Below, piece by piece: positions 15,534 through 21,772 of a stretch of 60,691 nucleotides of DNA. The notes below the pieces were generated by a model. The model made no database searches. It worked only from the letters and a program-made list of their open reading frames with translations, and had not been told where the DNA came from. Both the position numbers and the translations under genes were made by a program. The stretch's first letter is position 1; the number at the start of each line of letters is the position of its first letter. Origin of the DNA: an uncultured Gammaproteobacteria bacterium (GTDB taxonomy: Bacteria; Patescibacteriota; Microgenomatia; Levybacterales; UBA12049). The stretch lies in NCBI GenBank assembly GCA_964603935.1, contig CAZRWL010000004.1, positions 1-60,691 on the forward strand, written 5' to 3'.

Positions 15534-16657
15534 TTACTCATTTAATTAAACTTCGGCAGGAGATAGCCAAAAATAAATTGGATGCAGCGTTAATCTCTTC
15601 AGTATCCAATATCATTTATTTAACAAAATATTCAGGATTTTCAAAAGAGGAACGTGAAGCATATTTATTTATTACTCAAAACCAGCAATATATTCTAACT
15701 GACGGGAGATATGCTCATGCGATTAAAACATTAATTCCAAATTTTAAATTAATCGAAATCTCCTCAACGAATTCGGCAGAAGATATATTAAAAAAACTTA
15801 AAACCAAACACAAAATAAAAAGGCTCGGCGTTGAAGAAAATAATTTAACCCACAAAGAGTACAAAGAACTTTCTGCCTGCTTTAATGACCTGCCTGCCGG
15901 CAAGGCGGGTTTAAATCATTTTAGTTTGAATAATTTTCGTGCAATAAAAAACGGGAAAGAAATTTCCGCAGTAGAAAAGGCTTGTAAGCTTGGAGATAAA
16001 ACTTTTGCTTATATTCTAAAAAAAATTAAACTCGGAGTTTCGGAAAAAGGGGTAGCAAATGAAATAGAATTTTTTATCAAAAAACATGGCGCTGACATTT
16101 CTTTCCGTCCAATCGTTGCTTTTGGAAAAAACTCAGCTATTCCCCACCACGTTTCTACCCATAACTCCAAACTCTTAACTCATAACTCAATCATATTGTT
16201 GGATTTCGGTGTTAAATTAAATAACTATTGTTCCGACATGACCCGCACAGTCTTCTTCGGCAAACCAAGTCCCGAACAGAAACGCATGTACAAAACCGTT
16301 CTCCAGGCGCAAAAGCTTGCCATCGAATCCCTCACCTCGGATGGTGGCAGGCTGAGCTTGCGAAGCCATGACTCCTCCGAGGTGGATCGAATCGCCCGCG
16401 ATTATATAATTTCTAAAGGCTACTCAACTATCCCCCACTCTCTCGGTCATGGCATCGGCATTGACGTCCACGAATCTCCCCATCTTTCTCCCAACTCCAA
16501 AGATATATTAAAAGAAGGCATGGTTTTTTCCATCGAACCCGGAATTTATTCTCCAAATTTTGGTGGAGTCAGAATCGAAGATTTAGTGGTTTTGGAAAAA
16601 AACAATGTCCGCCTCCTCACCCACTCCCCAAAAGGCCCTCTTGACATATTGTCATAA
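15530..16657 (+). CDS. pepP: Xaa-Pro aminopeptidase (M24B) carrying three in-frame repeat insertions
   Basis: Creatinase_N domain, DFG, YCSDMTRT, HSLGHGIG, EPGIY, GVRIED. Confidence 0.93.
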   Translation: MITHLIKLRQEIAKNKLDAALISSVSNIIYLTKYSGFSKEEREAYLFITQNQQYILTDGRYAHAIKTLIPNFKLIEISSTNSAEDILKKLKTKHKIKRLGVEENNLTHKEYKELSACFNDLPAGKAGLNHFSLNNFRAIKNGKEISAVEKACKLGDKTFAYILKKIKLGVSEKGVANEIEFFIKKHGADISFRPIVAFGKNSAIPHHVSTHNSKLLTHNSIILLDFGVKLNNYCSDMTRTVFFGKPSPEQKRMYKTVLQAQKLAIESLTSDGGRLSLRSHDSSEVDRIARDYIISKGYSTIPHSLGHGIGIDVHESPHLSPNSKDILKEGMVFSIEPGIYSPNFGGVRIEDLVVLEKNNVRLLTHSPKGPLDILS

Positions 16658-16677
16658 ATATGACATTATAATTATAT

Positions 16678-16911
16678 ATGCAGCTTATACGAACGACTTT
16701 GAGATTAAAAGAAAATCTAAAAAAACGTGCAGAAAAAAAAGCGTTTGACGAAAACGTAAGCTTACAAGCTATTTTTAACCAAGCTCTGGAACAATATCTT
16801 GAAAAAGACGCTAAGAAACAAGCAAAAAAAATTATATTAAAAGCATATCACTTCGGTAAAAATTTAGATAACTTAACCCGCAATGATTTCTACCCTGACC
16901 CAGAAATTTAA
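16678..16911 (+). CDS. Ribbon-helix-helix antitoxin
   Basis: RTTLRL...SLQAIFNQALEQYL; promoter palindrome TGTCATA-AA-TATGACA at 16650-16665. Confidence 0.8.
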   Translation: MQLIRTTLRLKENLKKRAEKKAFDENVSLQAIFNQALEQYLEKDAKKQAKKIILKAYHFGKNLDNLTRNDFYPDPEI

Positions 16912-16912
16912 T

Positions 16913-17341
16913 ATGCTAATCGACACAAATATCTTAGTTTATTCTATCAATCTAGATTCACTAAAATATAAACAAGCCAAAGAATTTATAAACAATAACC
17001 TAGGCAGACTGGAAATTGCTCACCAGAATATTCTTGAAGCGATTAGAGTATTAACTCATAAAAAATTTTCCAATCCTAGGAAATTAAAAGAAGCGCTAAG
17101 TTCTACTTTGTCAATCGCGCAATCATGTTCCCTGATTTCGCCCAATCAGAATACGCTCTATCTGGCACTTGAGTTAATTAAAAAACATAACTTGAGCGGA
17201 AATAGGATTTTTGATGCTTATCTCACTGCAACAGCGCTCTCCAACGGAATTACGTCAATTGCTACAGACAACACCCGAGATTTCAAGAAATTCAATGGAA
17301 TCAAAACCATTAACCCTTTTGCCTCAACAATCCGCAATTAA
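16913..17341 (+). CDS. VapC/PIN domain toxin
   Basis: MLIDTNILVY, E, IFDAYL, TDNTRDF. Confidence 0.9.
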   Translation: MLIDTNILVYSINLDSLKYKQAKEFINNNLGRLEIAHQNILEAIRVLTHKKFSNPRKLKEALSSTLSIAQSCSLISPNQNTLYLALELIKKHNLSGNRIFDAYLTATALSNGITSIATDNTRDFKKFNGIKTINPFASTIRN

Positions 17342-17359
17342 ATTCCGATATTTTGATAC

Positions 17360-17388
17360 TTGACTTTCGTTGGGTAAAGTGATATAAT
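17360..17388 (+). promoter_or_regulatory. Sigma70 promoter (TTGACT-17-TGnTATAAT) overlapped by a 20-bp imperfect palindrome GACTTTC-N6-TAAAGTG (HisR-type operator)
   Basis: Palindrome at 17362-17381 resembles the YACTTTA-N6-TAAAGTR motif recalled for TrpR-family HisR regulators; lies directly upstream of the TrpR-like gene. Confidence 0.65.
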
Positions 17389-17401
17389 TTAGTATGATAC
17401 A

Positions 17402-17686
17402 GTGAAAATTGACAGCCGCAATAAGAATGTCTCCGATCTTTTAAGAGTGTTCCTTGCTTTAAAAAATGAAAAAGAGTGCTGGAAGTTTTTTAGAGATTTA
17501 TTAACAGAAGCGGAAATAAAAGAATTCGCAAATAGATGGAAGGTTGCCAGAATGCTTGATCAAAAAAATTACTACGAAGCAATTGAAAAAGAAACCGGTG
17601 TAAGCAGCACAACAATTGCCCGGGTAAATAAATGGCGAACGAAAGGCGAAGGCGGATTTAAAACAATGTTAAGAAGATTAAAATAA
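17402..17686 (+). CDS. YerC/YecD TrpR-like repressor (HisR-like)
   Basis: ECWKFFRDLLTEAE...RWKVARML...TGVSSTTIARV...G.GG; GTG start. Confidence 0.92.
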   Translation: MKIDSRNKNVSDLLRVFLALKNEKECWKFFRDLLTEAEIKEFANRWKVARMLDQKNYYEAIEKETGVSSTTIARVNKWRTKGEGGFKTMLRRLK

Positions 17687-17738
17687 AACTTATGAAATCT
17701 CAACCGCCGTCGAGACTTGAAGAGCATTCGGGATTTTC

Positions 17739-17768
17739 TTGACAATATGCAAAACAACATGATATAAT
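17739..17768 (+). promoter_or_regulatory. Consensus sigma70 promoter TTGACA-18-TGnTATAAT
   Basis: TTGACA 17739-44, TATAAT 17763-68; the ATG at 17776 sits at about +1 (leaderless). Confidence 0.8.
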
Positions 17769-17775
17769 ACTTTAT

Positions 17776-17835
17776 ATGACAAACGCAAGATTAAAATTTG
17801 CCTATCATTATTACACCACCTTAATGGCGGCGTAA
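17776..17835 (+). CDS. Attenuator leader peptide MTNARLKFAYHYYTTLMAA
   Basis: 19-aa ORF between the promoter and the terminator; codons TAT CAT TAT TAC at 17803-17814 overlap pairing segment 1. Confidence 0.75.
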   Translation: MTNARLKFAYHYYTTLMAA

Positions 17836-17860
17836 TTTTTGTTGCTTAAAAAATAATTAC

Positions 17861-17883
17861 ACCGCCGGACAGGCGGTTTTTTT
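17861..17883 (+). terminator. Attenuator terminator ACCGCC-GGACA-GGCGGT + T-tract, with antiterminator 17826-37/17855-66
   Basis: Mutually exclusive 1:2, 2:3 and 3:4 pairings are readable in the sequence. Confidence 0.82.
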
Positions 17884-17897
17884 GTGGCTTAAAATAT

Positions 17898-18939
17898 ATG
17901 AACAATCAAAGAATATTATGGTTTCAAGACGGAGTAAAGTTTTCTACTCAAGCTAGAATGTGGGAGAAAATTGATGCACTAACTCAAAAACTCATTGACC
18001 TTGCCAGCAATAGAGATTTTGAGCATGTTGTAGTTGATCCTGTTTCTTGTGCCCAAAAATTATTTAGGCAAACAGACATGCGAGATTATAGCTGTGTTAT
18101 AGATTTGTCAGGATTCTTTGGGGAAATTATTAAACGAAATTCTCCCCAGATTTCCGTTGTTAGTAACTTCAGGCTGAGTAGAATTAGAATCGTATCCTCT
18201 CCCCGTTTGGATGGAAGTGGATTTTTAGTTAGTTTAAATAACCAAGAAGTTAAAAAAATAAAAGACAACATCGATTTGAGCAGGCCTTTACTTTTGGATG
18301 ATGTTGCTTGGTCCGGAAGAACTATTGTTGAAGCAATAAAAATATTAGGAATAGATCCAACAACTACAACAGTTGGACTATTAGCAACTAACGACGGGAA
18401 TTTTGGAGAAGGGAAACCTGGGGCTTTAGGCGTATTAAAAGAAAAAGGAATTACTATCCTGCCAGGAGAAACTATTTCGACCCCGCAAGATGATGGCTTT
18501 CACCTTGCTGATTTTTTCAATTTTTCACCCGATGAAAATCTCTTCAATAGCATATTGGAAATTTGGATAAAAAGAAAAAAGATGCAAAATCTTTCCGGCG
18601 AAACAAGACAAAATACGGAGAATGAAATGAGAACTATTTTAATTAACAACAGAGAAGCCCTTTTCCCAAGAGCTATTTCGTCCGAAGGGATGAGAGCTCT
18701 CCAACAAGAAGGGCGTCTTTATCAATACAAGTGGAATAGCGAAAAATCAAATATTTGACACTAATCCACCCAATTGGCTTATGCCGTCTTTTATGCAAAG
18801 AGTGGATTTAAATATGGTTGCTAGAAATAAAAAAGAAATTATGGAAACTTTAAGGGAGTTTAGGAATATAATTAGCGAAGACCAAGAGATAGCAGAAGGA
18901 CGAAATGAAATTACAAGACGCGGAATAGAAAGAGGATAG
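17898..18939 (+). CDS. Type I phosphoribosyltransferase-like protein, split by a +1 frameshift near 18717-18720
   Basis: PRPP-loop PLLLDDVAWSGRTI; frame 0 stops at 18758; the +1 frame is open 18694-18939 and ends 2 bp before the next ATG. Confidence 0.72.
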
Positions 18940-18941
18940 AT

Positions 18942-19487
18942 ATGAGAAAAATACAAATCGGAGTCATGGGGTCATGTGCGGATCTAAAATACTCAAAGAA
19001 AATAGAACGACTTGCTGAGCAAGTTGGTTTTTGGGTTGCTAAAAAAAAGGCGACTCTTATTTTTGGCGCAGAAAAAGATGTTGATTCTTTATCAACTTCC
19101 GCATGCCGCGGAGCCAAAAAAGTAAAAGGCCTTACTGTTGGAATAACTTACGGAAAAGGACTGGAAGTAAAAGAGAAAAACACTGACATTGTTATCGCAA
19201 GTGGCTCAGAAAGAGGAGGAGGAAGAGAGTTTCCTCTGGTATTGAGCTGTGATGCAATTATTTGCATTAGCGGAGGTTCCGGAACTTTAACCGAGATAGC
19301 TATTGCCTACCAAGCAAATATACCGATTGTGACTTTGCAAGGAACCGGCGGATGGAGCGAAAAACTAGCCGGACAATTTTTGGATGGACGAAATAGAATT
19401 AAAATAGAGTCTGCCAAAACTCCTAAAGAAGCAGTTAGCCTGGCAATAAAACTAGCCTTAAAAAATCATCGTAACCAATCCTTATAG
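18942..19487 (+). CDS. LOG/SLOG family protein (TIGR00725-like)
   Basis: IGVMGS, AEQVG, GGGRE, DAIICISGGSGTLTEIAIAY..NIPIV, GTGGWS. Confidence 0.9.
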   Translation: MRKIQIGVMGSCADLKYSKKIERLAEQVGFWVAKKKATLIFGAEKDVDSLSTSACRGAKKVKGLTVGITYGKGLEVKEKNTDIVIASGSERGGGREFPLVLSCDAIICISGGSGTLTEIAIAYQANIPIVTLQGTGGWSEKLAGQFLDGRNRIKIESAKTPKEAVSLAIKLALKNHRNQSL

Positions 19488-19577
19488 TTAGGGATTGGCT
19501 GTGTTTTTCATTTTAAATTAAACCGCAAAAACACCATCGATCTCTGTCTATAAGGATTTTTTTCTTTGACAGAGATC
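19475..19577 (+). promoter_or_regulatory. Candidate structured RNA switch between the LOG stop and the PRTase-2 start
   Basis: Three hairpins plus an alternative 11-bp pairing 19477-87/19548-58. Confidence 0.6.
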
Positions 19578-19580
19578 ATT

Positions 19581-20498
19581 ATGGTAGAAAGTTTTAATTA
19601 TAAATCACTCGAGAAAAAAGAGACAACGCAACAAAGTCCTTATGTAGTATCACAGGATATAGGTATTCTGATGAAAAAATGGGCGAAAGAAAGAAATTTT
19701 AATCTTCCAAATGAAGAGTTTATTACACAGTTGCGTTCGGAGTTTGCTCAATTTATGAAACGAATTTTTCCGAGCTTTGAATCGGTAAATGAAAATGAAT
19801 TATCAAATGGATTAAGAAGTCTTGTTGAAAGTACCGAGCTTTTTTCGATATCCTTAGACCGAGTCTATTTTCAGTCAAATCCTAGCATAGACATTTCCAG
19901 ACTTGTGGATAATGAGGGCAAAGATAAAGGTTTGGGCAGAAGAAGAGATTCATCTTCCCTTCTTGGACAATTTAAAAAATTAAAAAAACTTGACATAAAA
20001 GAAGCTGTTTTAGTGGATGATGTCGTTTTCTCAGGAAGTTTGGTAGAAAGAATAATGAATGTTTTATCGGACATTAACATAAAAATACCAGTAATTTGTG
20101 CTGGCATTGCAATAAAGGAAGGAATAGATATTATTGCTAAGTCTGGCAAAGAATTACGAGCCGTAAAAATTTATGACAAAGTAATCGATGAAGTTTGCGA
20201 AAGAGATTTTTATCCGGGCGTCCCATTTTGCGGAAGATCTCTTAACAGTTGCGACAACGTTGGTATACCCTACATTCTGCCCTTTGGAGACCCTGGAAAA
20301 TGGGCGTCAATACCGCAAGAGTGGCAAAAACCTTTCTCTCAATTTTGCTTACGACAATCTATCAAATTATTTGAAAAGGTAGAAAACTGCTCAGGAAGAT
20401 ATATTTACTGTTCAGATTTAGATCGAAAAATAATTTCATTACCAAGTAATAATACTAGATTTATTAGTTCCCTAAAACAATTTTTACAAGAAATATGA
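19581..20498 (+). CDS. Second type I phosphoribosyltransferase-like protein
   Basis: AVLVDDVVFSGSLV PRPP-loop; shares SR..D..G and D....DF motifs with the first PRTase-like gene. Confidence 0.75.
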   Translation: MVESFNYKSLEKKETTQQSPYVVSQDIGILMKKWAKERNFNLPNEEFITQLRSEFAQFMKRIFPSFESVNENELSNGLRSLVESTELFSISLDRVYFQSNPSIDISRLVDNEGKDKGLGRRRDSSSLLGQFKKLKKLDIKEAVLVDDVVFSGSLVERIMNVLSDINIKIPVICAGIAIKEGIDIIAKSGKELRAVKIYDKVIDEVCERDFYPGVPFCGRSLNSCDNVGIPYILPFGDPGKWASIPQEWQKPFSQFCLRQSIKLFEKVENCSGRYIYCSDLDRKIISLPSNNTRFISSLKQFLQEI

Positions 20499-20584
20499 TA
20501 TTATAAAAGAGGCTATAAAAAAAATCACCCCGCTGTTTAGGCGGGGGAAATTCGTTATTTACAATTTAACACAAGAAAATAATT

Positions 20585-21772
20585 ATGTCAAGTATTAAAG
20601 CGCAAACGCTAAAAGGATTCAGAGACTTCCTCCCTAGCGAGGCGAGAAAGAGACAGTTTGTTGTTAACGCTTTGAAAAAGGTGTTTGAATCTTATGGCTT
20701 TGAACCGCTTGAAACACCTAGCTTGGAATACGAAGAAATACTTCTTGGAAAATATGGTTCGGAAGGCGATAAATTAATGTACCGCTTCGAAGATAATGGG
20801 AAAAGACGCGTTGCATTAAGATACGACCAGACCGTTCCCCTGGCCCGTGTTGTGGCACAATACCAAAATCAACTCCCAATGCTGTTTAAACGGTACCAAA
20901 TTCAAAATGTCTGGCGCGCGGAAAATACCCAAAAAGGCCGTTTCCGCGAATTTCTCCAATGCGACATCGACACTGTCGGCACATCTTCCCCACTGTCCGA
21001 TACGGAAATTATTGAAGTTGCTGCAACTTCACTCAAAGCTTTAGGATTTAAAGATTTTAAAATCTTAATCAATGACCGGAAAAATTTTGACAAATTAGAT
21101 AAAAAAGCAATATCTATCATTGATAAATTGGCGAAAATCGGCGAAGACAAAGTTAAGATATATCTGAAAGAAGAAGAAATTGACGACAAAACTCTTGAAA
21201 AAGTAAAAAACATGCCTATTACTGAAGAATTGAAAAATATTGCAGGTTTGCTTGAAAAAATAAAAATTGAATTTTCTCCGACCCTTGCTCGCGGTTTAGA
21301 TTACTACACAGGATTAATTTTTGAAATTGAGATTGAGGGATATTCTGCGGGATCGGTTTGCGGAGGAGGACGCTATGATAATTTAATCGGTTTATTCGCC
21401 AATAAACAAGTCCCCGCAGTTGGCTGCGCTTTTGGTTTCGACCGCCTGATGGAGGCCATGGATCAGCTTAATCTTTTCCCCAAAGACCTGCAAACAACCA
21501 AAGTCTTAGTTACTATTTTCTCCCCGGAACTTGTTCAACAATCAATTAACTGCACTACAGTACTACGTAGCGCTAAAGTATCTACAGAGTTATATCTTGA
21601 TCCAAATGCCAAGCTGGAAAAACAGATGAAATACGCAGATACCAAAGGTATCCCTTACGCTGTTATCATAGGTCCTGATGAGGCAAAAAATAAAACCGTA
21701 ACCTTAAAAAACCTAAAAACCCGCGAACAAAAGACAATTTCCAACGGAAAAATAATCGAAGAGTTATCTTGA
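20585..21772 (+). CDS. hisS: Histidine--tRNA ligase
   Basis: KGFRDFLP, LRYDQTVP, QKGRFREFLQCD, RGLDYYTG, GGGRYD, anticodon-binding domain. Confidence 0.98.
   Translation: MSSIKAQTLKGFRDFLPSEARKRQFVVNALKKVFESYGFEPLETPSLEYEEILLGKYGSEGDKLMYRFEDNGKRRVALRYDQTVPLARVVAQYQNQLPMLFKRYQIQNVWRAENTQKGRFREFLQCDIDTVGTSSPLSDTEIIEVAATSLKALGFKDFKILINDRKNFDKLDKKAISIIDKLAKIGEDKVKIYLKEEEIDDKTLEKVKNMPITEELKNIAGLLEKIKIEFSPTLARGLDYYTGLIFEIEIEGYSAGSVCGGGRYDNLIGLFANKQVPAVGCAFGFDRLMEAMDQLNLFPKDLQTTKVLVTIFSPELVQQSINCTTVLRSAKVSTELYLDPNAKLEKQMKYADTKGIPYAVIIGPDEAKNKTVTLKNLKTREQKTISNGKIIEELS

Follow-up and report, generated by a model that had tools for sequence, protein, structure and literature searches.

The 60,691-nt stretch of contig CAZRWL010000004.1 that is called the window here comes from the Microgenomates lineage of the candidate phyla radiation (CPR). 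At 17739–17883 on its forward strand lies a short control element that precedes a cassette of two genes, one with a divergent phosphoribosyltransferase (PRTase) fold and one of the SLOG family. We read this element as a transcription attenuator of the classical type, whose leader peptide is translated from a leaderless mRNA and senses the charging of tRNA-Tyr and, secondarily, of tRNA-His. Both the specificity and the lineage would be new for such a device, and we give this reading a probability of about 0.8. Three observations carry it: the anatomy of the element, the conservation of its design at orthologous loci, and tyrosine-specific T-boxes at the same position ahead of related cassettes.

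Anatomy and predicted switching of the leader

The element opens with a sigma-70-type promoter (17739–17768, + strand), in which TTGACA (17739–17744) and TGaTATAAT are separated by 18 nt. All twelve hexamer positions match, the -10 box is extended by TG, and this is both the best and the only 12/12 match within 16500–19500. Seven nucleotides separate the end of the -10 box (17768) from the ATG at 17776, where a 19-codon open reading frame (ORF; 17776–17835, + strand) encoding MTNARLKFAYHYYTTLMAA begins. The spacing is too tight for a Shine–Dalgarno sequence, and a leaderless start at this ATG is plausible. In frame with it are four adjacent codons, TAT CAT TAT TAC (17803–17814), that specify Tyr10, His11, Tyr12 and Tyr13; in the long ORFs Tyr accounts for 3.4 per cent of codons and His for 1.6 per cent. 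The genome has one tRNA-Tyr gene (anticodon GUA) and one tRNA-His gene (GUG).

Four segments on the + strand make up the rest of the element. Segment 1 (ATTACACCACC, 17810–17820) pairs with segment 2 (GGCGGCGTAATT, 17826–17837) at nine of eleven positions, with two A.C mismatches, and this 1:2 hairpin appears when the fold is ended after segment 2. The leader's stop codon (TAA, 17833–17835) falls within segment 2. Segment 2 also forms an antiterminator with segment 3 (AATTACACCGCC, 17855–17866; 11/12 pairs), and segment 3 overlaps the 5' arm of an intrinsic terminator, ACCGCC-GGACA-GGCGGT (17861–17883, -10.7 kcal/mol). The terminator stem (17861–17877) has six pairs, five of them G-C, around a loop of five; its GGCGGT arm (17872–17877) is segment 4, and a run of seven T follows at 17877–17883. 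Minimum-energy folds contain the 2:3 helix, which excludes the 3:4 terminator. The first structural gene begins 14 nt past the T tract. A sequence-only reading had proposed this four-segment layout, and its coordinates were exact to the base. An Rfam scan of 17000–18600 at E values up to 10 gave nothing meaningful: the sole leader family was Phe_leader (17.5 bits, gathering score 55, E 8.4), and the T-box model had no match there. In four DNA sequencing runs mapped to the window the leader showed no informative variant, and no RNA run that includes the region was listed. The DNA reads also contain a short contig, otherwise unrelated, that resembles 17824–17887.

The mechanism that we infer would run as follows. 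Transcription would start at the AUG at 17776 or no more than two bases away from it, as the promoter geometry indicates, and a ribosome would read the 19-codon leader. When Tyr- and His-tRNA are ample, the ribosome would clear codons 10–13 and cover segment 2, leaving segment 3 free for segment 4, and RNA polymerase would terminate at the T tract. A ribosome stalled at Tyr10-His11-Tyr12-Tyr13 would cover segment 1 alone, so that 2:3 pairs, the terminator is blocked and transcription continues. Read-through would reach the PRTase-like and SLOG genes, and probably also a PRTase-CE-like gene and hisS, which encodes histidyl-tRNA synthetase (HisRS). Such a mechanism would imply that transcription and translation are coupled on leaderless mRNAs in these organisms.

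We modelled the switch by forcing a 27-nt ribosome footprint (A site -15 to +11) to be single-stranded, codon by codon; the folding is an equilibrium partition function and not a kinetic one. With the A site at Tyr10 or His11 the terminator has a probability of 0.00, at Tyr12 of 0.20 and at Tyr13 of 0.16. It rises to 0.81 at Thr14 and 0.99 at Thr15, and stays at 0.99 up to the stop codon. Among 2000 dinucleotide shuffles of 17769–17897, 7 gave a Tyr run of at least equal density in an ATG-initiated short ORF (sORF), and shuffling the linker between footprint and terminator produced an antiterminator that removes the terminator in 10/300 cases.

The design is like that of E. coli pheM-pheST and of the attenuators predicted at Streptomyces trpS and leuS (PMC1262725, excerpt, which also mentions pheST), with a sORF of cognate codons, alternative hairpins and an operon that contains a synthetase gene. 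The window differs from this type in its control codons (Tyr and one His), in its first regulated genes, which are the PRTase-like/SLOG pair and not a synthetase, in its predicted leaderless start and in its CPR/Microgenomates lineage. In His_leader (RF00514) and the His leaders predicted in Firmicutes (PMC9413887, excerpt), too, a stall at His codons relieves a terminator; in contrast, the window has a single His codon amid Tyr (two in its orthologue L010), no Rfam match and controlled genes that are not biosynthetic. The opening of a leaderless mRNA with a codon-run sORF recalls the mycobacterial polycysteine sORFs, whose downstream operon responds to one amino acid according to the excerpted text of 10.1101/834739. 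Those concern another amino acid and another lineage, and the window has an explicit terminator and antiterminator.

Full-text literature, supplements aside, yielded no report of leader-peptide attenuation or of T-boxes in CPR/Patescibacteria and, among the papers listed, none of a Tyr-specifier T-box in Patescibacteria. Most described cases of leader-peptide attenuation come from Proteobacteria, and others have been predicted in Actinobacteria and some Firmicutes. There is no Tyr-codon leader among the Rfam families scanned, and within these literature searches we know of no Tyr-codon or tyrosine-specific leader peptide; the window's would be one.

T-boxes and leader peptides at orthologous cassettes

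Related loci were fetched with an alignment of forty members of the PRTase-like family, which was needed since a single-protein query returned none. Seven came from species genomes, thirteen from metagenomes and one from a class sample. Duplicates were merged (L016 = L007, L019 = L009, L014 = L012, L002 = L008, and L018 lies within L017) and L022 has no upstream DNA; seventeen distinct loci remain, the window included. Eight of these carry a T-box and one (L015) the 3' half of a T-box, seven have a sORF leader with a Tyr run, and one (L020) is cut so that the terminator alone remains.

Seven of the T-boxes were matched by the Rfam model RF00230 (L004, 100.0 bits; L008, 98.7; L005, 95.0; L003, 86.3; L011, 79.7; L017, 72.2; L007, 62.6) with E values of 1e-11 to 1e-21, and three exceed the gathering score of 93; the eighth, L054, was judged by eye from its motifs. 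The specifier loops of the eight loci that have stem I read GAAUUAC[C/U/A], AAAUUACC, GAAGUACC, AUAUACG and GAAAUACC, and the single triplet common to all of them, UAC (Tyr), immediately precedes the final base of the loop. With its sequence UGGU, the antiterminator bulge is compatible with a discriminator A, as expected for tRNA-Tyr but not for bacterial tRNA-His; a T-box for His would have to match a discriminator C. The predicted signal is the same as for a T-box with a Tyr specifier such as that of Bacillus subtilis tyrS, namely uncharged tRNA-Tyr. These T-boxes stand at the same place 5' of the cassette in eight to nine loci, and their terminator is of the same kind. The window leader, which would rely on translation, differs in mechanism from a T-box, to which tRNA binds directly; it is the predicted functional counterpart of the relatives' Tyr T-box. 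At the his genes of Firmicutes, His leaders, T-boxes and TrpR-family HisR repressors replace one another, as the excerpted text of PMC9413887 describes. Here the same cassette is placed under a tRNA-binding riboswitch or a translated leader according to genome, which amounts to a natural experiment.

A T-box is absent from the remaining seven readable loci, where one finds instead a sORF containing a Tyr run, together with a G+C-rich hairpin and a run of T. Besides the window (MTNARLKFAYHYYTTLMAA, run YHYY), single leaders occur in L010 (MKWTINSSYHHYTTSNGGVDSCV, YHHY), L006 (MKIKSSSVSVYYYTS, YYY) and L021 (MKQTNLKAQHLNNSYRYYLFYCGG, YRYY). L009 has two sORFs, MKTIGLNMYCYLTLYRRG and then MNKTRLIKQFSFYCYQLLYR, with the run YCY. 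In L012 a YYNY leader (MMIFSITNNFYYNYPA) is followed by a YYYY leader (MKSFDNKKQLTWSVSYYYYQLLYGGEPFYA), and L013 has two leaders like these, with the same runs. In both loci (L012 216–470, L013 3211–3465) two predicted attenuators stand in tandem ahead of the cassette, each leader being followed by its own terminator, and the second leader lacks a separate promoter. An extended -10 box lies 6–11 nt 5' of the ATG in 7/7 cases, comprising the six first-in-line Tyr leaders and a Phe leader described below. This geometry fits a leaderless start. Of the proposals in the sequence-only reading, the leaderless attenuator and the Tyr sensor are both supported by the orthologous cassettes, which have ahead of them either UAC T-boxes or Tyr-run leader ORFs with terminators.

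The leaders of the window, L010 and L006 can be aligned with a mean column identity of 71 per cent. They keep CTATCAT.A.TA.AC.ACC, the Tyr/His codons, the four segments and the TTTTTTTGTGG junction, so that the comparison of orthologous leaders suggested at the outset finds the codon run and the segments kept in three leaders and Tyr runs at seven loci. The junction TTTTTTTGTG(G) 5' of the gene is common to these leader loci and to the T-box loci L007, L008 and L015. In L006, segment 2 has changed from GGCGG to CGGGG, matched by changes in segments 1, 3 and 4.

A one-base indel separates the window from L010, such that peptide tail and stop codon differ and the RNA segments are kept. This bears on the idea that the sORF, ended by a terminator of its own, encodes a 19-residue peptide that is functional in itself and has nothing to do with the genes downstream. 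The strong promoter and the terminator on either side of the sORF speak for it. Against it, residues are not conserved beyond the Tyr run, the indel alters the tail and leaves the RNA intact, and the downstream gene, 14 nt past the T tract, has no promoter of its own. We consider a functional peptide barely credible.

The same controls were applied to the other sORFs. Tyr runs of equal density arose in few of 2000 shuffles at L006 (1), L012 (0), L013 (0) and L021 (19), and an equally good antiterminator arose in 0–10 of 300 linker shuffles per leader. In all nine terminator-bearing leaders (9/9) the terminator probability is about 0 while the A site is in the run; the codon at which it attains at least 0.9 lies inside the run or no more than three codons past it. 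Without a ribosome the leaders differ. Those of L006, L009 (first), L012 (first) and L013 (first) are predicted to terminate because their 1:2 hairpin is strong; those of the window, L010, L012 (second), L013 (second) and L021 are predicted to read through at equilibrium, and in this window-type design termination would therefore need a ribosome on segment 2. A protein tree of sixteen cassette genes, for which the L009 gene was truncated at its internal stop, lacks the resolution for a count of switches between T-box and leader: the best tree has three changes of the T-box label, and well-supported branches force only one.

The terminator might instead be controlled by a protein, such as the product of the TrpR-family gene upstream, by a small RNA or by an unrecognised ligand, with the sORF incidental. 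The TrpR-family gene (PF01371, 75.5 bits; 17402–17686, with its own 11/12 promoter at 17360–17388) ends 53 nt 5' of the attenuator promoter, and the HisR regulators of his genes belong to the TrpR family (PMC9413887, excerpt). The modest fold z-score of the leader (below) would also suit this explanation. However, what the seven loci conserve is the pairing and a Tyr run that is in frame where the switch occurs, and they share no RNA sequence or ligand pocket; the Rfam scan, as noted, matched no family. No TrpR-like gene sits beside the cassette among the Pfam-annotated upstream genes of L006, L009 and L010, and the sequence of a related strain (DNA run X5) diverges after 17709, directly past the TrpR-like gene. 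A DNA-binding repressor would moreover act on the promoter, and would be an addition to attenuation and not an alternative. On balance, control without the ribosome is very unlikely. Further upstream, at 16678–17341, two overlapping genes, one for a ribbon-helix-helix protein (a weak match) and one for a PIN-domain protein, are likely a toxin–antitoxin pair of the VapBC type.

Synthetase genes and the histidine codon

The sequence-only reading placed the attenuator upstream of hisS. That gene (TIGR00442, 404.8 bits; 20585–21772, + strand), the sole HisRS gene found in the genome, does lie downstream in the same orientation, though it is 2.7 kb away and three other genes intervene. No promoter better than 9/12 was found on the + strand between 17768 and hisS. 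In L010, the HisRS gene starts 7 nt past the SLOG stop codon. The window and L010, the two loci where hisS follows the cassette, are also the only ones with His codons in the run. A tyrosyl-tRNA synthetase (TyrRS) gene lies 3' of the cassette in L005, which has a T-box, and in L009 and L012, which have Tyr leaders.

We surveyed the stand-alone synthetase genes of relatives; the genome's own tyrS falls outside this survey, as its contig ends inside the gene. Within 350 nt of the stand-alone hisS of eighteen relatives, neither a sORF with a Tyr/His run nor a T-box motif was found (0/18). The stand-alone tyrS of twenty relatives have no T-box motif, and three have TTG- or GTG-started ORF fragments bearing such a run. 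Where T-boxes were hit in relatives' genomes, they sit on contigs other than those with tyrS or hisS. The survey thus indicates that the tRNA-sensing leader is a feature of the cassette, one that synthetase genes in general do not share. A -10 box was found 4–12 nt 5' of the ATG in 13/18 hisS and 17/20 tyrS of the relatives, from which leaderless mRNAs appear common in the window's order. The window hisS has no such leaderless promoter of the kind that directly precedes hisS in 13/18 relatives, and has, by this comparison, lost its usual promoter. Tyr control would then have been inherited with the PRTase/SLOG cassette, and a His codon added where hisS came to depend on the cassette's promoter. 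On this view hisS joined the operon in a single clade, in which the His codons appear to have been added, and the codon mix of the leader would follow the synthetase gene that joined.

The opposite course, in which a His attenuator of hisS decayed to Tyr through CAY-to-TAY transitions, had also been proposed from the sequence alone. It could draw on the position of hisS, downstream, in the same orientation and without its own promoter, and on the His codons that are left (one in the window, two in L010). The orthologues contradict it. No pure His run turned up among them; hisS-free loci have pure Tyr runs, and the T-box loci pair a UAC specifier with the UGGU bulge. Relatives' stand-alone hisS genes have no leader RNA, and what constantly follows the element is the cassette, not hisS. 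Tyr control goes with the cassette, and we reject the decayed His leader as largely refuted and highly improbable.

Several points weigh against the Tyr/His attenuator itself. The window and L010 are sisters in the protein tree (support 85/94), and the link between His codons and hisS is for that reason one evolutionary event. At 19475–19498, ahead of the PRTase-CE-like gene, a 10-bp hairpin with a T-rich tail could end many transcripts short of hisS. In the window model, a stall at any of codons 2–13 gives read-through, and the placement of the run shows only that it fills the last permissive codons. The window, L010, L012 (second), L013 (second) and L021 depart from the trp paradigm, under which a leader that is not translated ends in termination. 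The window is predicted to read through in that state: its 1:2 hairpin is weak, and in the equilibrium fold computed with no ribosome the antiterminator prevails, with a terminator probability of 0.02. Its fold energy is unremarkable (z -1.86, equalled in 9/200 shuffles). Tyr density on its own is non-significant in L010 (194/2000) and L009 (251/2000), and the scan found no terminator for the second sORF of L009 (MNKTRLIKQFSFYCYQLLYR). The covariation among the window, L010 and L006 is suggestive and comes from three alignable sequences.

The cassette and other predicted leaders in the genome

The first regulated gene (17898–18758, + strand) encodes the N-terminal 286 residues of a PRTase-like protein that has no match in Pfam or NCBIfam. 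It has a motif like the phosphoribosyl pyrophosphate (PRPP) loop, and its structure model (predicted local distance difference test score 92) has XGPRT/UPRT-type PRTases as its nearest Foldseek neighbours, at an E value of about 3e-4. A search of PDB sequences with the family profile gave only E values of 0.14 or worse, ESM Atlas returned just unnamed or PRTase-like clusters, and PADLOC had no cassette hit, the third gene matching solely PRTase_III-A (E 0.006). The family is rare: it has fifty-one proteins, all of Microgenomates type, in a collection of 5.8 billion clusters, and it is present in 2/61 relatives and 4/401 sampled genomes of the class. Named homologues belong to Roizmanbacteria, Daviesbacteria or the Patescibacteria group, and the fetched contigs also include Levyibacteriota.

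The PRTase-like gene stops at 18756–18758, and the C-terminus of longer homologues (TNPPNWLMPSF...) goes on in the +1 frame to 18939. This piece (18760–18939, + strand), some 59 residues long, is identical at 26/54 positions to residues 287–340 of a 346-residue homologue, P0016 (E 7e-14), and a second family comparison also matches 18700–18924. The fifteen closest homologues (63–74 per cent identical) all have 274–288 residues, and a split gene or programmed frameshift at 18756–18760 therefore seems to be conserved in the window's clade. The first cassette gene is also interrupted in L009 (3501–4512, in-frame stop at codon 114) and consists of two ORFs, of 232 and 104 residues, in L012 (497–1516); sequencing errors, decay or recoding may account for these interruptions.

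The second gene (18942–19487, + strand) belongs to SLOG cluster 4 (LOG-like, TIGR00725 family). A SLOG cluster-4 gene is the constant partner 3' of the PRTase-like gene in every annotated locus but L006, where a short-chain dehydrogenase gene takes its place. The third (19566–20498, + strand, alternative ATG at 19581) is PRTase-CE-like, with 23.9 bits to PF24390, which is below the cut-off, and a distant likeness to the first gene's family around the PRPP loop. Between it and hisS lies a G+C-rich hairpin, CCCCGC...GCGGGG (20526–20546). It looks like an opposite-strand terminator, given the A run ahead of it, though both flanking genes are on the + strand. The expression of the orphan PRTase/SLOG pair would be tied to tRNA-Tyr status, and this offers a handle on its function.

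PRTase and LOG-like folds are those of enzymes that make or cut the bond between a base and ribose-5-phosphate. This invites an explanation, raised in the sequence-only reading, in which leader and T-boxes gauge, in place of amino-acid supply, how tRNAs with GUN anticodons (Tyr, His, Asn and Asp) are modified at the wobble base (queuosine or preQ1 in position 34) or how fast they are decoded, and the cassette salvages a 7-deazaguanine base for tRNA-guanine transglycosylase (TGT). The pairing of the two folds in the cassette fits, as do the His codons mixed into the runs of the window and L010, the Asn codons in L012 and L013, and the linked synthetases, since both TyrRS and HisRS serve tRNAs of the queuosine family. 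Both tgt (463.7 bits) and a gene for a YhhQ/Vut_1 transporter (145.1 bits) are present in the genome; QueA was not found and QueC was marginal. The presence of tgt and YhhQ without a detected QueA suggests, from gene content, salvage of 7-deazaguanine. In the genome (G000) the two matches lie at C9:4882–6021 and C3:1923–2417, and the tgt match holds one in-frame TAA. tgt occurs in 8/9 cassette genomes and in 37/61 relatives, although this association is non-significant (binomial estimate, p about 0.08, with kin that are not independent). Nor does any other of these hints reach significance.

The T-boxes speak for a sensor of charging. Eight orthologous loci use T-boxes with a C-ending UAC specifier, and T-boxes read charging, telling charged from uncharged tRNA at the 3' end. 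Cys and Arg are among the non-Tyr residues of the runs and Asp is absent, five loci use Tyr only, and the choice of TAT or TAC in the leader mirrors that of the genome (67 per cent TAT). We found no link in sequence or fold between the cassette and known queuosine enzymes. A sensor of modification or decoding speed is, on this evidence, quite improbable. A related proposal concerns the cassette's function and is speculative, and we hold it to be unlikely: the cassette would be a tRNA-linked base-salvage module (e.g. queuine or preQ1 for TGT), with T-boxes and leaders gauging the performance of GUN-anticodon tRNAs, and poor decoding or charging would raise the supply of base. If this were true, tRNA performance would control the synthesis of the tRNA's own modification, a loop of which we know no other example, though no search aimed at one was made, and an orphan CPR enzyme pair would have a function.

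The same kind of control by a translated leader is predicted at a second operon of the window genome. No T-box was found in this genome (1.08 Mb, 97 per cent complete) at E values up to 0.01, and none in six other genomes of the genus; T-box hits occur in 16/36 genomes of the family. A genome scan for sORFs at loose settings was too noisy for a census, and a strict scan for promoter-proximal terminators after sORFs was used. It returned nineteen candidates, two of them with a codon run: the window leader and MKINSKTFNFFFTFA, a Phe leader on contig C20 (L023 4833–4965). Flanked by rplT and by an operon that comprises a HisC-like aminotransferase gene, a gene for a 332-residue protein of unknown function, pheS and pheT, the latter takes the classical rplT-leader-pheST position of a pheM-pheST-type attenuator. 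Its 2:3 and 3:4 pairings are clear alternatives, it switches like the window leader in the footprint model, and it scores 22 bits on the Rfam Phe_leader model (gathering score 55). Two predicted leader-peptide attenuators, one for Phe and one for Tyr/His, would thus be present in a single CPR genome of this size. On the same contig, at L023 963–1075 (G000 C20 4462–4574) and with no evident promoter, a possible third attenuator consists of an Ile-rich sORF (MTTRVNFISIIKIITPVWEVYSRK) with a GGGAGG/CCTCCC hairpin pair and a T run after it, ahead of an ORF of 94 residues.

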